NCBI GenBank assembly: GCA_963703285.1
Contig: OY969807.1
Location: forward strand, 128,001 to 192,000
DNA from: an uncultured Nitrososphaerota archaeon
Lineage (GTDB): Archaea; Thermoproteota; Nitrososphaeria; Nitrososphaerales; Gagatemarchaeaceae
Length of the DNA stretch: 64,000 nt
Direction: 5' to 3'
The position numbers and the translations under genes are program-made. Shown here piece after piece: positions 625 through 38,589 of the stretch. The notes beneath the pieces are model-generated. The model was given only the letters and a program-made list of their open reading frames with translations, was not told the origin of the DNA and searched no databases. Each line of letters opens with the position of its first letter. The stretch's first letter is position 1.

Positions 625-1488
625 TCAGCCTTTGGGAGGTTGCTCCGAGCCGGCGGAGCTCGAGTACGCCTCGCCTATCCTCTTCTCCAGCCTCGCCCCG
701 AACGACCGGACCCGCGCCGCGACGGTCGGGGTCAGGTCGAGAGACAGCGGTGATATGGAGATCGCGTTCTCCTTGTGCACGGCATAGACGTCGGAGTTCT
801 TCTTGAAAGTCGGAAGCCTTGAGCCCCAGACCCAGTAGTAGGGCCTTCCCCTTGGGTCCTTCCTCTGCAGTACGTAGTCCCTGTACTTCCTCACTTCGAT
901 CGACGTCAGCTTCACCTTGGTCCCCACGACCGTCTTCCATGGAAAGTTCACGTTCAGTATGTTCACCCCTTGGGGCAGCCCGTTGGTGAGCACCTCCCGC
1001 GCTATCTCAGCCGCGACCTTCGCGGGCAGGTCGAACCGGCTGTCCTTCTGCCCGTGGCTGAACAGCCGGTTTCCCGGCACCTCCATGGAGAACGCGACGG
1101 CGGGGATTCCGAGGAGCGACGCTTCCATGGCGGCCGCCACCGTCCCCGACGCCAGTATGTCCTGAATCGTGAGGTTTTCCCCTATGTTTATGCCGGAGAC
1201 GACCATGTCGGGCCTCCGAGGCAGCATCTTGTTAACGCCAACCATCACGGAATCGGCGGGGCTGCCCGAGACAGCGTAGCAGGGCCTCCCGTGAACGAGC
1301 ACCTTCTCGACGCGCAGGGGCCTGTGGAACGTGAGGCTCATGCCGGCCGCGCTCTGCTGGCCCTCTGGGGCGATGACGGAGACGTGGGCGAACTGCGCGA
1401 TAGCGTCCGTGAGCGCAACTATCCCGGGGCTGAAGACTCCGTCGTCGTTGGTGACCATCACCAGGTGCGAGCTTCTCCTCGTGCTCAT
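625..1488 (-). CDS. surE: 5'/3'-nucleotidase SurE
   Basis: VTNDDG, SGSPADSV, VVSGINIGEN, SGTVAAA motifs. Confidence 0.95.
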   Translation of the reverse strand: MSTRRSSHLVMVTNDDGVFSPGIVALTDAIAQFAHVSVIAPEGQQSAAGMSLTFHRPLRVEKVLVHGRPCYAVSGSPADSVMVGVNKMLPRRPDMVVSGINIGENLTIQDILASGTVAAAMEASLLGIPAVAFSMEVPGNRLFSHGQKDSRFDLPAKVAAEIAREVLTNGLPQGVNILNVNFPWKTVVGTKVKLTSIEVRKYRDYVLQRKDPRGRPYYWVWGSRLPTFKKNSDVYAVHKENAISISPLSLDLTPTVAARVRSFGARLEKRIGEAYSSSAGSEQPPKG

Positions 1489-2087
1489 CCCTCCTTCAGC
1501 CGCATTGCCACCCCGTTAATAGCCTCGTCCGGGTTACGACAACCGTAGTGCTCCCTCAGAATCCTTCTCACCTTCTCGGGCCTGTCGTCTCCGAATGAAA
1601 GGTACGTTATCTGCTTCTCTTCAGTGGTGATGTCCAGCCCCTCGATAATCCGGGATATCCTCGACTCGTCCTCGGTGACCTCCTCTGTCGTCCTCCTCAT
1701 CCTCTCAGCGAGCTCTTCGGCCCTCCGTCTCATCAGGATTACGTCCTGGGCCAGCCTATCGAGCTCGGCGCTTGGGTCGTCGACTCTCGCTGGTTCTGTC
1801 GCAATCTCCCTCCCGAGGACCGCGACCGTCATGTCGCCCTCGGAGTAGTCTGCCACCCTCCGAGAGTCGATGTAGTAGAGCTTCCTCGACCTGAGGTACC
1901 TCCCTGAGGAGAGGTTCTTCGTCCTGAGTATGCCCAACCTCGAAAGTATCTTGAGGTGCTTGAGGACTCCCTGGACCGACATCCCGGTCGTCTCTGCAAG
2001 CTCCCCGAGGGTTCTCGGCCTCGACGAAAGCAGACTAGCTATGGTCAATCTCGCCCTCGAGCTGACAATCTCTTCTATCGCCGTCAT
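1485..2087 (-). CDS. Winged-helix (ArsR-like) regulator with coiled-coil C-terminus; probable heat-shock repressor (HSR1/Phr-like)
   Basis: N-terminal HTH (TLGELAETTGMSVQGVLKHL); divergent from hsp20-cdc48. Confidence 0.75.
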   Translation of the reverse strand: MTAIEEIVSSRARLTIASLLSSRPRTLGELAETTGMSVQGVLKHLKILSRLGILRTKNLSSGRYLRSRKLYYIDSRRVADYSEGDMTVAVLGREIATEPARVDDPSAELDRLAQDVILMRRRAEELAERMRRTTEEVTEDESRISRIIEGLDITTEEKQITYLSFGDDRPEKVRRILREHYGCRNPDEAINGVAMRLKEG

Positions 2088-13347: not shown

Positions 13348-13676
13348 GGTTCTGTTAAGTTGATGGGCCGTCCTTCGGACTCTGGGCGCTGTAAACCTTC
13401 GGGCCACGACTGGTGTTCTGAATGACGATTAGGTCTGTGGGTGAATGGAATTCTGCGTGTGGCTAGCAAGGCGCCTACGCCCAAGCCGACGGGTATCAGC
13501 CATATCGCATTCATCCACGCTACTTGTCCGCACGCTGTGCTACATATTCCCTGACACGGTGGAAGTGGTGTCAATGTGCCGCAGTAGACCTGTATCCCAG
13601 CCACTGCCAGGATTAGTTCTATTGCAGCAAATGGTGCAAATCCGACCAGAAAGTTCTGAACGGTGACGTGGTTCAT
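13348..13676 (-). CDS. Cargo small membrane protein with Cys-rich loop; ORF reads out through the TIR (track ORF 13053-13676)
   Basis: Two TM segments around YCGTLTPLPPCQGICSTACG; lower GC; TATA-like TATAT upstream. Confidence 0.45.
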
Positions 13677-13848
13677 CTTGCTTCAGTGTCCTGAGTTGAC
13701 TGGAAGGATATAGACGTGCTGTCACGAACGCGTCTTGAAGAATCAGCCTCATGGCCCGTCAACTTAACAAAGCCCATGAAAGCGACTTATGGCCCGACCC
13801 TTAACAGGCCCAAAATCCTCAGGTGTGGCCCATCAAGTTAACAGAGCC
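13348..13848. mobile_element. 501-bp non-autonomous TIR element (IS6-like ends) with cargo ORF
   Basis: TIRs GGTTCTGTTAAGTTGATGGGCC and revcomp GGCTCTGTTAACTTGATGGGCC (20/22); flanking direct repeat TGAGCTG at 13341-13347 and 13849-13855. Confidence 0.85.
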
Positions 13849-25428: not shown

Positions 25429-25454
25429 GGCGTATCGGTGCCCGCATTCTCTTC

Positions 25455-26810
25455 GGTTCTGTTAAGTCTTCGGGTAATGCCCGAGGCTGTTAAACATCGG
25501 GCGATGACCGCCACTCAACTTGCTGGCATCGACTCTGAGGATTACCGTCCGCGTCGGGTTCCCCCTCATTGTTTCACTTGCCAGCCCTTTCTCCCTGGCC
25601 ACAAAATCAGCTTGTTGCGAGCGGCCTTGTGGCTTTGGACGGGAACTCGCGAACCTCGCAAGTCCCCTCTTGGATAGATTGAGGGCCGCGTTAACGTCCC
25701 TGTCCATCCATGTCTTACAGGTCTGACAACACAGCATCCTCTGATGCGCGACATCACCCTTCACAGGGCTGTGAGTCCTCTCCCCACACGCCGAGCACTC
25801 CGAGGAGGAGCCGTAGGTATCAGACTTGGTAAGCGGAATCTTGGTCAATCCTTTCCATGCGGCCTTGTATTCGAGCATCTGCTTGACCTTCCAGTGCGGC
25901 CACGAGTCAATCGGAATCGATAGTCCTCGCCCTGACCATTCCTTCTCCGATACATCTTCCTGATGCCGGTGAGGTCTTCGAGAGCGAGCGCCGCGCCATT
26001 TCTTGAGGCTGTATCAACGATGAAGTTCGTAGTCGCGTGGAGCATCTGATCTGTCCTGTTGTAACATCGCTTCCAGTATTTCCGAGAAAGTTGCCTCCTG
26101 ATTCTAACATCGTTCCTCTTGAACGACCCGACGATCTCTCTCGTCGTCTGCCGAATCTTCACGGCCTTCGTCATGTCCACCTGAATCACGCTATCCTTGT
26201 CTCCAAATGTGAGGTTCTTCTCATTCCTATCCACGCCATACACCGTCTTGACCGGCGCGGGTTCGACCTCCTCTGAGTAGCAGAACGAGAGATTGTCTGG
26301 TGTTATCGTGAGACTCCTCGTCTTTTTCCCTTCGAGAGTTTCAATCACGTGAGGATTGAGTTGGACATCGAAGTATCTGTCTCGCGCCAGAGGTAAGAAC
26401 AGCCTGCCCTTCATTGTAACAAAGAACCCTGAGATTATGCAAACTTTCTCCTTCAAAGGCTTCAGATGCTTCGTCTCAGCCTCCCGCTTCTCAGATTTTT
26501 TCCTGCTCGCCACGACCTCACATGCTCGTCCTATCGCCGCTGTCTTGTAGCACGAAGGCAGCTTCACATCCTTGAGTGTCCGATAGAACTCTTTCATCCC
26601 CTTCCTGTTATCTATCCCGTGCTCCTGAGCGTAGTTGACAGCGTTGTAGGTCAGAGTCAGGCACTCGCCGAGGAGGCCTCGTAGTTCTTCCCCATCAATT
26701 GACAGAGAGACAGACTTTGTAGCTCGCAATGACTAATCATACGACTATGGGATATAACCGCCACCCGGGGGGTTAACAGGCGAACTCATCACCAAGGACT
26801 TAACTGAAGC
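25455..26810 (-). mobile_element. 1356-bp TIR-bounded element carrying only tnpB, with 8-bp target-site duplication
   Basis: Ends GGTTCTGTTAAGTCTTCGGG and revcomp GCTTCAGTTAAGTCCTTGGT (15/20); TTCTCTTC at 25447-25454 and 26811-26818. Confidence 0.82.
25462..26729 (-). CDS. tnpB: TnpB RNA-guided endonuclease (one-base deletion at ~25907)
   Basis: RuvC-I GVDRNE, RuvC-II ALEDLTGIR, Zn finger CSACG/CQTC, RuvC-III DRDVNAALN; ORFs join as RL(N)SWPHWK. Confidence 0.9.
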
Positions 26811-26856
26811 TTCTCTTCTTGAGCTTTTATACCTGCACCCGACCCCGCGTGCAGTT

Positions 26857-38340: not shown

Positions 38341-38589
38341 CTACTAGGATGGGGTTGGAACCACCAGCTCCCTGATGACCTTCTTCGGGTTCCTCGTGGT
38401 CGGGCTCTACTTCTTGGGAAAGATTTCGAGAAGGAAGAAACAATCGGATTAGGAGTTAGGGGCTCGCTGCTGTGTCTGACCGTAAGAATAGGTGGGGATG
38501 GAGCAAGTCGCAAATCCCATCGTTCGGACGGTTCTGATAACTCGTCGGGGTATTGAAATATCCGGATTACCGATGCGGCATGCCCGCAA

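Follow-up and report, generated by a model that had tools for sequence, protein, structure and literature searches.

In transposons of the IS605 and IS607 types, the target motif of the transposase doubles as the target-adjacent motif (TAM) of the RNA-guided nuclease TnpB, and homing has a purpose there since these elements excise without a scar. TnpB has also been described in DDE-type surroundings: Altae-Tran et al. reported in 2023 six DDE-associated branches (DDE-1 to DDE-6) with inverted terminal repeats (PMC10691335), and solo TnpBs that share those ends were considered to be probably moved in trans (PMC10691335; PMC13565253). IS630 was named for branch DDE-6 (PMC10691335), a 2026 review credits the same work with ISL2, IS630 and IS1031 (PMC13565253), and IS6 profiles appear in the supplement of the 2023 study only within a list of transposase models (PMC10691335). 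In the IS6 family itself, a single member was reported to bear a passenger gene, two were reported as miniature elements, and none was reported to carry tnpB (PMC7986276). The element described here occupies positions 25455-26810 of a 64,000-nt stretch (the window, positions 128,001 to 192,000 of contig OY969807.1, GenBank assembly GCA_963703285.1) from an uncultured Nitrososphaerota archaeon of the Gagatemarchaeaceae; it carries tnpB, on the minus strand, as its sole gene between terminal inverted repeats, and it is flanked by an 8-bp target-site duplication, a length that none of ISL2, IS630 and IS1031 is known to produce. It was considered, with a probability of about 80%, to belong, as a non-autonomous element, to an IS6-like family of DDE transposons in archaea, having a TnpB/omegaRNA module as its only cargo.

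An initial annotation, made from the sequence of the window, had taken it as known that canonical prokaryotic TnpB hosts lack terminal inverted repeats and leave no target-site duplication, a statement that the six DDE-associated branches have rendered dated (PMC10691335). It had also put the element forward as the best candidate for a new system, which stands only in part: DDE-associated TnpB was already in print in 2023 (PMC10691335), and what remains of the claim is a new partner family, an IS6-like partner being named neither in the accessible text of the 2023 work nor in that of the 2026 review (PMC10691335; PMC13565253). Moreover, a full-text literature search, judged on titles and abstracts, returned no paper on a TnpB-IS6 association, and nothing relevant to TnpB in Thaumarchaeota, Nitrososphaerota or Bathyarchaeota was seen among the literature matches listed. 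The combination of DDE transposition, inverted repeats and TnpB is thus published, and it is the IS6-like pairing that we could not find in print. What is added here is the partner transposase in the same genome, the conservation across the clade, the RNA scaffold end that merges into the terminal repeat, and a replicated, one-sided T-purine motif.

Ends, duplications and the proposed IS6-like partner

Both the imperfect 20-bp inverted repeats and the exact 8-bp duplication that the initial annotation had read were recovered at the boundaries of the element (Table 1), and the end 13-mer was found to occur six times at two mismatches or fewer, against 0.55 occurrences expected. The host genome, a single contig (C1) of 2.25 Mb with 60.6% G+C and 96% completeness, harbors six tnpB genes of the same type, distributed among three sub-families (A, B and C in Table 1) with 31-38% identity between them. 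All six elements end in GGTTC(T/C)GT-type tips, and their duplications match at 8/8 in four cases and at 7/8 in one, being decayed in the last.

The same configuration was observed outside this genome. A scan for relatives, with one genome per species, yielded 275 of them, of which the best 80 were used; the closest belonged to Nitrososphaerota (Thaumarchaeota) genomes from soil and peat. The tip ACAGAACC, at one mismatch or fewer, was located directly 3' of tnpB in 58/80 of these loci, and the remaining 22 presented, by reading, mostly variants of it. An inverted partner matching at 11/20 or better, accompanied by an 8-bp duplication mismatched at no more than one position, was found in 14/80 loci versus 0/80 in four flank-shifted controls, and among the 33 loci with ends at 13/20 or better the duplication was 8/8 in seven, 7/8 in six and 6/8 in three. 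A second sample, obtained by a class-wide genome search, comprised 40 loci, four of them without the tip, and included 23 new elements with ends at 13/20 or better, in which the duplication was 8/8 in 11 and 7/8 in two. The check proposed along with the annotation, that close TnpB homologues be examined for these repeats and for variable duplications, was thereby answered in the affirmative for part of the loci in both samples (13/23 in the second). In addition, a copy about 94% identical to that of the window lies on a peat contig in a different context and bears its own duplication, ATGATTCT, on both sides.

The initial annotation had itself named what would overturn it, namely that the 8-bp match and the inverted ends are a coincidence of pyrimidine-rich flanks around an IS1341-type element, and the modest match of the window ends (15/20) could be taken in that sense. 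However, independent copies bear different exact 8-bp duplications at identical boundaries, and the shifted controls were empty. Because different 8-mers occupy the same boundaries, they are to be read as target duplications, and coincidence was rejected as an extremely improbable explanation. The 8-bp duplications and the inverted ends recur across the clade and are not a product of chance.

A genome search for the IS6-type DDE domain (Pfam) revealed three genes in the host, one of them within the 4626-bp element listed in Table 1. The ends of this element, GGTTCTGTTAACTCT(C/T)CGTCATCG, agree with those of the tnpB elements over the first 16-17 of 18 bases. Its 406-aa transposase (C1:1254934-1256154) matched PF13610 at 56.4 bits (cut-off 27; 4.7e-15), and its best NCBIfam match was IS6 (NF033587), spanning positions 1-200 of 202. 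At the N-terminus, a weak SWIM match and a weak IS1/IS1595-type zinc-binding match (23 bits, cut-off 28) were observed, and the protein gave no match to the IS1595 family at E ≤ 0.001. The other two IS6-like genes of the genome are about 30% identical and lack recognisable ends of the same type. A survey of 66 published transposase loci yielded 33 elements of 2.0-4.5 kb with GGTTCTGT-type ends (at least 14/24) and 8/8 duplications; in all, 34 transposase-carrying elements have 8/8 duplications, and, where examined, their passenger genes are unrelated. Members of this IS6-like family bear the transposase with passengers, tnpB with the RNA, the RNA alone, or a small open reading frame (ORF).

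These findings uphold the annotation of the carrier as an IS6-like DDE element with inverted repeats and target-site duplications, in place of IS200/IS605 or IS607: a transposase element of the same genome shares its ends, and no Y1 (HUH) transposase (PF01797) was found in the 96%-complete single-contig genome. Membership in IS200/IS605 (IS1341 group) was rejected on the presence of inverted ends and 8-bp duplications and on the same lack of PF01797 in the genome. IS607 membership was rejected as well, the sole resolvase-domain gene of the genome (C1:685876-686262) adjoining a distant tnpB that does not share the IS6-like ends. This resolvase-domain gene and the distant tnpB form an IS607-type pair at C1:684737-686262, and a second, near-identical copy of the IS607-type tnpB, with only the tail of the recombinase gene left and likewise with ends of another kind, is placed at C1:634609-635499.

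The distribution of the two genes was also compared across the class. A transposase homologue (E ≤ 1e-20) was present in 132/301 genomes, and in 29/40 tnpB-positive genomes versus 102/260 others (odds ratio 4.1), or in 26/37 of the former once three unpublished genomes are removed. These unpublished genomes (G132, G231 and G283) enter only into the tallies 132/301 and 41/301 and into the first of the co-occurrence tests, their loci having been left out elsewhere. Such co-occurrence is only supportive of the pairing, related genomes not being independent.

Several observations weigh against this assignment. The transposase was in no case part of the same element as tnpB (0/80 tnpB loci), tnpB was in no case located within a transposase-carrying element (0/66 transposase loci), and the single transposase found near tnpB (1/80, locus L037) belongs to a separate insertion sequence with different ends; the tnpB copies with a DDE gene for which the annotation had suggested a search were thus not encountered in cis. 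With no transposase in cis, we infer mobilisation in trans from the shared ends only. In addition, the NCBIfam IS6 score of the transposase, 102.5 bits, falls below the model's own cut-off of 125, for which reason the protein is named only IS6-like; 17 of the 33 related elements with ends at 13/20 or better have a duplication of 5/8 or worse; and 11/40 tnpB-positive genomes, many of them fragmented assemblies, gave no transposase match. Compared with the wording of the annotation, in which TnpB had been captured by a DDE family, "cargo of a non-autonomous derivative" is the more exact description.

The tnpB cassettes could also be moved by another DDE transposase, IS1595-like or unrecognised, the likeness of the ends reflecting common ancestry only. 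The 11 tnpB-positive genomes without an IS6-like match and the weak IS1/IS1595-type zinc-binding N-terminus would suit this explanation. However, the ends agree almost base by base with those of the IS6-like element in the same genome, no IS1595 match was obtained at E ≤ 0.001, and co-occurrence is enriched, with an odds ratio of about 4, so that another transposase was judged unlikely.

Regarding the gene itself, tnpB is broken into two ORFs in the window, and the D, E and D residues of RuvC and the CxxC...CxxC finger are all present, spread over both pieces, in agreement with its annotation as the only gene of the element, with RuvC acidic residues and a zinc finger. The stop codon, TAA at 25462-25464, falls within the terminal repeat, as had been noticed from the sequence. 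PF07282 matched the tnpB proteins at 3.9e-14 to 9.8e-24, NF040570 scored family B at 116.9 bits (above its cut-off) and family A at 79.4 bits (below it), and D167, E251 and D345 are invariant in the protein alignment. Moreover, the tnpB profile matched solved TnpB/Cas12f chains in the PDB, with ISDra2 TnpB at 2.1e-11. The box TTATAT upstream of tnpB is likely to be the element's own promoter, and similar TATA-like boxes were seen, by reading, in the same place in both other family-A copies.

A lesion had been suspected at 25907, and a 1-nt frameshift indeed sits there, after ...DYRFRL in the alignment with two intact paralogues; copies about 94% identical from three peat/permafrost runs (contigs of X2, X7 and X9) have one extra T behind 25906. 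This deletion is either a pseudogene lesion or an assembly error, and, as the contigs of the likely source run (X1) do not cover 25801-26164, the two are indistinguishable. Taking together the frameshift and the AA that stands where other copies have the T-purine motif discussed below, the window copy is probably dead or mis-assembled.

Further elements with such ends were observed in the window and elsewhere. The second, tnpB-free cassette that the annotation had reported from 13348 is real, with matching ends and a flanking duplication; end-like motifs are repeated in its subterminal part, and its minus strand has a small ORF for a hydrophobic product. Its right end (13740-13848) displays three spaced end-like motifs (13762-13774, 13799-13811 and 13836-13848), which may be repeated transposase binding sites. 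At 38530-38550 of the window, GGTTCTGATAACTCGTCGGGG resembles an element end for which the partner end was not found, and it may be a solo end or a remnant. The passengers of the 4626-bp transposase element are an 804-aa N6 DNA methylase fusion and a 103-aa ORF. The fusion presents an HSDR_N-like N-terminus, the N6 DNA methylase and a specificity-subunit-like C-terminus, with MADS2 as its best NCBIfam match (221 bits, under the cut-off), and is, by its predicted domains, a defence-type passenger on a transposon. In locus L112 (281-3347) the transposase is flanked by passenger ORFs of 326 and 227 aa, and in locus L115 (591-3475) by ORFs of 172 and 107 aa. About 10/68 transposase-element flanks consist, by reading, of the tip of another element (..ACAGAACC) exactly 8 bp off, as in loci L103, L106, L118, L122, L129, L139, L142, L148 and L159; elements arranged head-to-tail and sharing one 8-mer could be the trace of a cointegrate-type or end-targeted insertion.

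Table 1. Coordinates of the features in the window and of related elements in the host genome (C1) and in one further locus
Feature	Position	Strand	Remarks
Target-site duplication, copy at tnpB 3' side	25447-25454		TTCTCTTC; identical to 26811-26818 (8/8)
Target-site duplication, copy at tnpB 5' side	26811-26818		8/8, TTCTCTTC
Terminal inverted repeat RE, tnpB 3' end	25455-25474		GGTTCTGTTAAGTCTTCGGG; tip GGTTCTGT common with the IS6-like transposase element
Terminal inverted repeat LE, tnpB 5' end	26791-26810		reverse complement GCTTCAGTTAAGTCCTTGGT; 15/20 versus the other end
tnpB N-terminal part, 294 aa	25845-26729	-	RuvC-I (GVDRNEKN) and RuvC-II (ALEDL)
tnpB C-terminal part, 138 aa	25462-25878	-	zinc ribbon, RuvC-III DRDVN; PF07282 9.4e-15
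1-nt deletion splitting tnpB	25906/25907		T where relatives have TT
omegaRNA-like scaffold within the tnpB 3' coding region	25455-25590	-	ends at the transposon tip; covariation
Predicted guide template	25435-25454	-	duplication and next ~12 nt of flank; putative
TATA-like box TTATAT	26752-26757	-	22 nt upstream of tnpB start
TATA-like box of thiI	26825-26831	+	6 nt past the duplication, 25 nt before TTG start 26857
tnpB-free 501-bp cassette	13348-13848		same ends; flanks TGAGCTG(G); ends 20/22 by reading
Transposase element, 4626 bp	C1:1251536-1256161		ends 23/24; duplication CGACAGCG, 8/8
Family A, window copy	C1 153455-154810		TTCTCTTC, 8/8
Family A copy	C1 630371-631727		duplication AGGTGCTG, 8/8; tnpB intact (C1:630381-631646, 422 aa)
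Family A copy	C1 981581-982943		duplication 7/8
Family B copy	C1 340637-341872		duplication AAAGTAGC, 8/8
Family B copy	C1, ends at 2134474		duplication decayed
Family C copy	C1 near 1775000-1776280		GAAAAAGT, 8/8; 5' end decayed
0.3-kb derivative	C1:1229977-1230287		duplication TAGACCGA, 8/8
0.3-kb derivative	locus L005, ~1262-1583		duplication 7/8

The RNA-like element end and the flank motif

The alignment of the last 180 nt before the tip, in 63 copies, revealed three helices: a 7-pair long-range stem (window 25579-25586 with 25522-25528), an inner hairpin at 25541-25560 and a 3-pair helix between them. Over the 13 pairs, 94.9% of the cells are paired versus 71.3% after shuffling, and sliding the partner by 1-3 columns towards 5' or by one towards 3' lowers pairing to about 45%, sliding it by 2-3 columns towards 3' to 24-25%. 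Ten of the 13 pairs change on both sides, and the covariation score was 0.546 versus 0.148 for shuffled alignments, with 0/500 shuffles reaching the former value. The paired codons change jointly, for instance from CCG...CGG to GGG...CCC, and such joint switches are the behaviour of an RNA embedded in a coding region.

The conserved sequence runs to the tip, ...GTT(A/G)ACAGAACC, and this same tip is the terminal repeat. The anatomy is that of a TnpB omegaRNA, but one in which the 3' end of the scaffold doubles as the end sequence of the transposase, the transcript itself being a prediction from the alignment. In Rfam, no family matched the tnpB 3' regions of the five copies searched, the sole match being an unrelated tRNA. 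Since the RNA structure runs to the tip, and following the published placement of TnpB guides (PMC10691335), the guide would be templated immediately beyond the element (Table 1). Two 0.3-kb derivatives have lost tnpB except for the 3' part that encodes the RNA, which they retain with the ends and a TATA-like box, and they are candidate stand-alone guide-RNA elements; a full-length tnpB of their sub-family was not found in the host genome.

This arrangement bears on whether the element is an accidental composite, in which an IS200/IS605-type (IS1341-like) tnpB element became nested in an IS6-type miniature with no functional tie between them. Nesting may well be how the lineage began, and miniature elements with the same ends and other contents do exist, as the cassette at 13348-13848 of the window exemplifies. 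However, there is no spare DNA between the two: both the tnpB stop codon and the conserved RNA end lie inside the terminal repeat, an arrangement retained among sub-families even where protein identity falls to about 35%, and the genome yielded no Y1 transposase. A purely accidental composite was thus considered quite improbable.

In an unoccupied site, the eight bases of the duplication would follow on whatever sequence lay across the insertion, and the flanks of the elements were compared for this reason. At the tnpB 5' side, a T-purine dinucleotide stands directly before the duplication in 24/37 elements of the first set and in 15/23 of the second, and on the other side, read inward, in 5/37 and 6/23, respectively; over both flanks of the transposase-carrying elements it was found in 12/68. 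Combining the sets, the proportion at the tnpB 5' side (39/60) differs from that of the other side (11/60; Fisher 3e-7) and from that of the transposase flanks (Fisher 4e-8), P values that overstate the contrast, related genomes being non-independent. T alone occupies position -2 in 29/37 elements of the first set, and the window copy reads AA at the T-purine position. The dinucleotide is a candidate TAM, and, being one-sided and tied to tnpB instead of the transposase, it would fit a TAM selected after insertion.

However, the flank motif could be partly promoter sequence, which also tells against a TAM. According to this alternative, the motif belongs to the core promoter of the neighbouring host gene (the side of the B recognition element and TATA box, on the other strand), and either the transposase or selection for harmless sites would put elements upstream of promoters, with no role of TnpB in their persistence. 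In fact, an AT-rich, TATA-like patch at -13..-7 is common to both kinds of element, with 4.9 A/T of 7 beside the tnpB elements versus 2.8 further out, and 5.5-5.7 versus 4.2-4.4 beside the transposase-carrying ones. Moreover, the patch coincides with the promoter of the divergent neighbour: the window element sits just upstream of the thiI promoter, 6 nt from its TATA-like box, and for copy B1 the corresponding box, that of a superoxide dismutase gene, is 5 nt away. Against this, T-purine is rare beside the transposase elements although their flanks are equally AT-rich (A/T content 0.69, versus 0.67 in the second tnpB set); in the second sample the -13..-7 patch is weak and the T-purine signal persists; and the motif is one-sided relative to tnpB. 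On these counts, a promoter origin is supported for the TATA-like patch and not for the T-purine pair, and the promoter explanation was regarded as doubtful, yet a serious competitor of the TAM. An unoccupied site could not be shown by synteny, thiI not standing beside the AIR-synthase-like gene in three genomes of the same family.

Returning to the TAM, it is quite possible, although we would not put it at even odds, that in this clade the end of the RNA scaffold became fused to the transposase-binding tip of an IS6-like transposon, that the 8-bp duplication serves as the guide seed, and that elements persist preferentially where a random insertion fell behind a T-purine TAM. In the explanation favoured for the elements as a whole, the IS6-like transposase would move the tnpB cassettes in trans via the shared ends, and the omegaRNA would read through the tip, so that its guide would consist of the eight duplicated bases first and of the adjoining flank thereafter. 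TnpB would cut unoccupied sites bearing T-purine just before those eight bases, and repair from the occupied copy would restore or spread the element; copies that had landed behind T-purine could thus cleave alleles lacking the element and return to them by copying. The occupied site would be safe at the tnpB 3' side, where the invariant ...CC tip takes the position of the motif, and at the tnpB 5' side, where only 8 nt match the guide. A difficulty for this model is that the studied IS6/IS26 elements make cointegrates and are not excised (PMC7986276), so that TnpB homing loses its usual rationale. As a speculation, homing would here serve the spread between genome copies and not the repair of an excised donor. 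If elements of the clade do persist behind a TAM in this way, RNA-guided homing pays even for a transposon that makes duplications and possibly is not excised, and it is selection acting on inserted copies, not the target choice of the transposase, that imposes the TAM.

Comparison with known systems

With respect to the IS6/IS26 family, the elements described here share the 8-bp duplication, the short terminal repeats, the GG tips with a cTGTt motif (GGTTCTGTT... here) and a DDE transposase that matches PF13610 and has IS6 as its best NCBIfam model, although below the cut-off, and that family, too, has long members with a zinc finger at the N-terminus (PMC7986276). In contrast, the "caaa" motif of the IS6 ends is absent, being replaced by TAAC, CAAC or TAAG, and, whereas the classic members are about 0.8 kb long with one gene (PMC7986276), the transposase elements found here measure 2-4.6 kb and carry varied passengers. 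The likeness to the IS1341 group of IS200/IS605 concerns the cargo: tnpB is the sole gene, its product bears the RuvC D-E-D residues and the zinc ribbon, and a structured RNA, overlapping the gene at its 3' end, borders directly on the element end. The carrier differs, since IS200/IS605 elements lack inverted ends and duplications and depend on Y1 (PMC13565253), and the element of the window has both ends and duplication. The same nuclease module is found here in a target-duplicating transposon whose transposase shows no target motif of the kind that doubles as the TAM in IS605 and IS607.

The published DDE-associated TnpBs are closer still, in that tnpB lies inside inverted repeats with its 3' end near the transposon end, and solo tnpB genes share their ends with transposase-bearing elements (PMC10691335). 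However, that association was called on a DDE gene within 1 kb of tnpB (PMC10691335), which, apart from the separate insertion sequence at L037, was never the case here, and surveys that require a transposase at such a distance would file elements such as the present ones as ordinary IS1341. Among the branches, the DDE-5 systems present a TA motif 8 bp upstream of the predicted end (PMC10691335, supplement), which resembles the T-purine placed here 8 bp from the end, and DDE-5 could be identical with the present system or a sister of it.

The TnpBs of the clade are compact archaeal proteins (390-425 aa) for which the scaffold end is defined and the candidate TAM is simple, and the one-sided T-purine makes the clade a testable case of a guide-RNA nuclease meeting an unrelated transposition chemistry. 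As in the case of Fanzor, a TnpB-type nuclease is a passenger in duplication-making DDE transposons (PMC3627910; PMC13565253); unlike Fanzor, the carrier is prokaryotic and the nuclease a typical small TnpB. The elements described here are thus a prokaryotic counterpart of the Fanzor situation.

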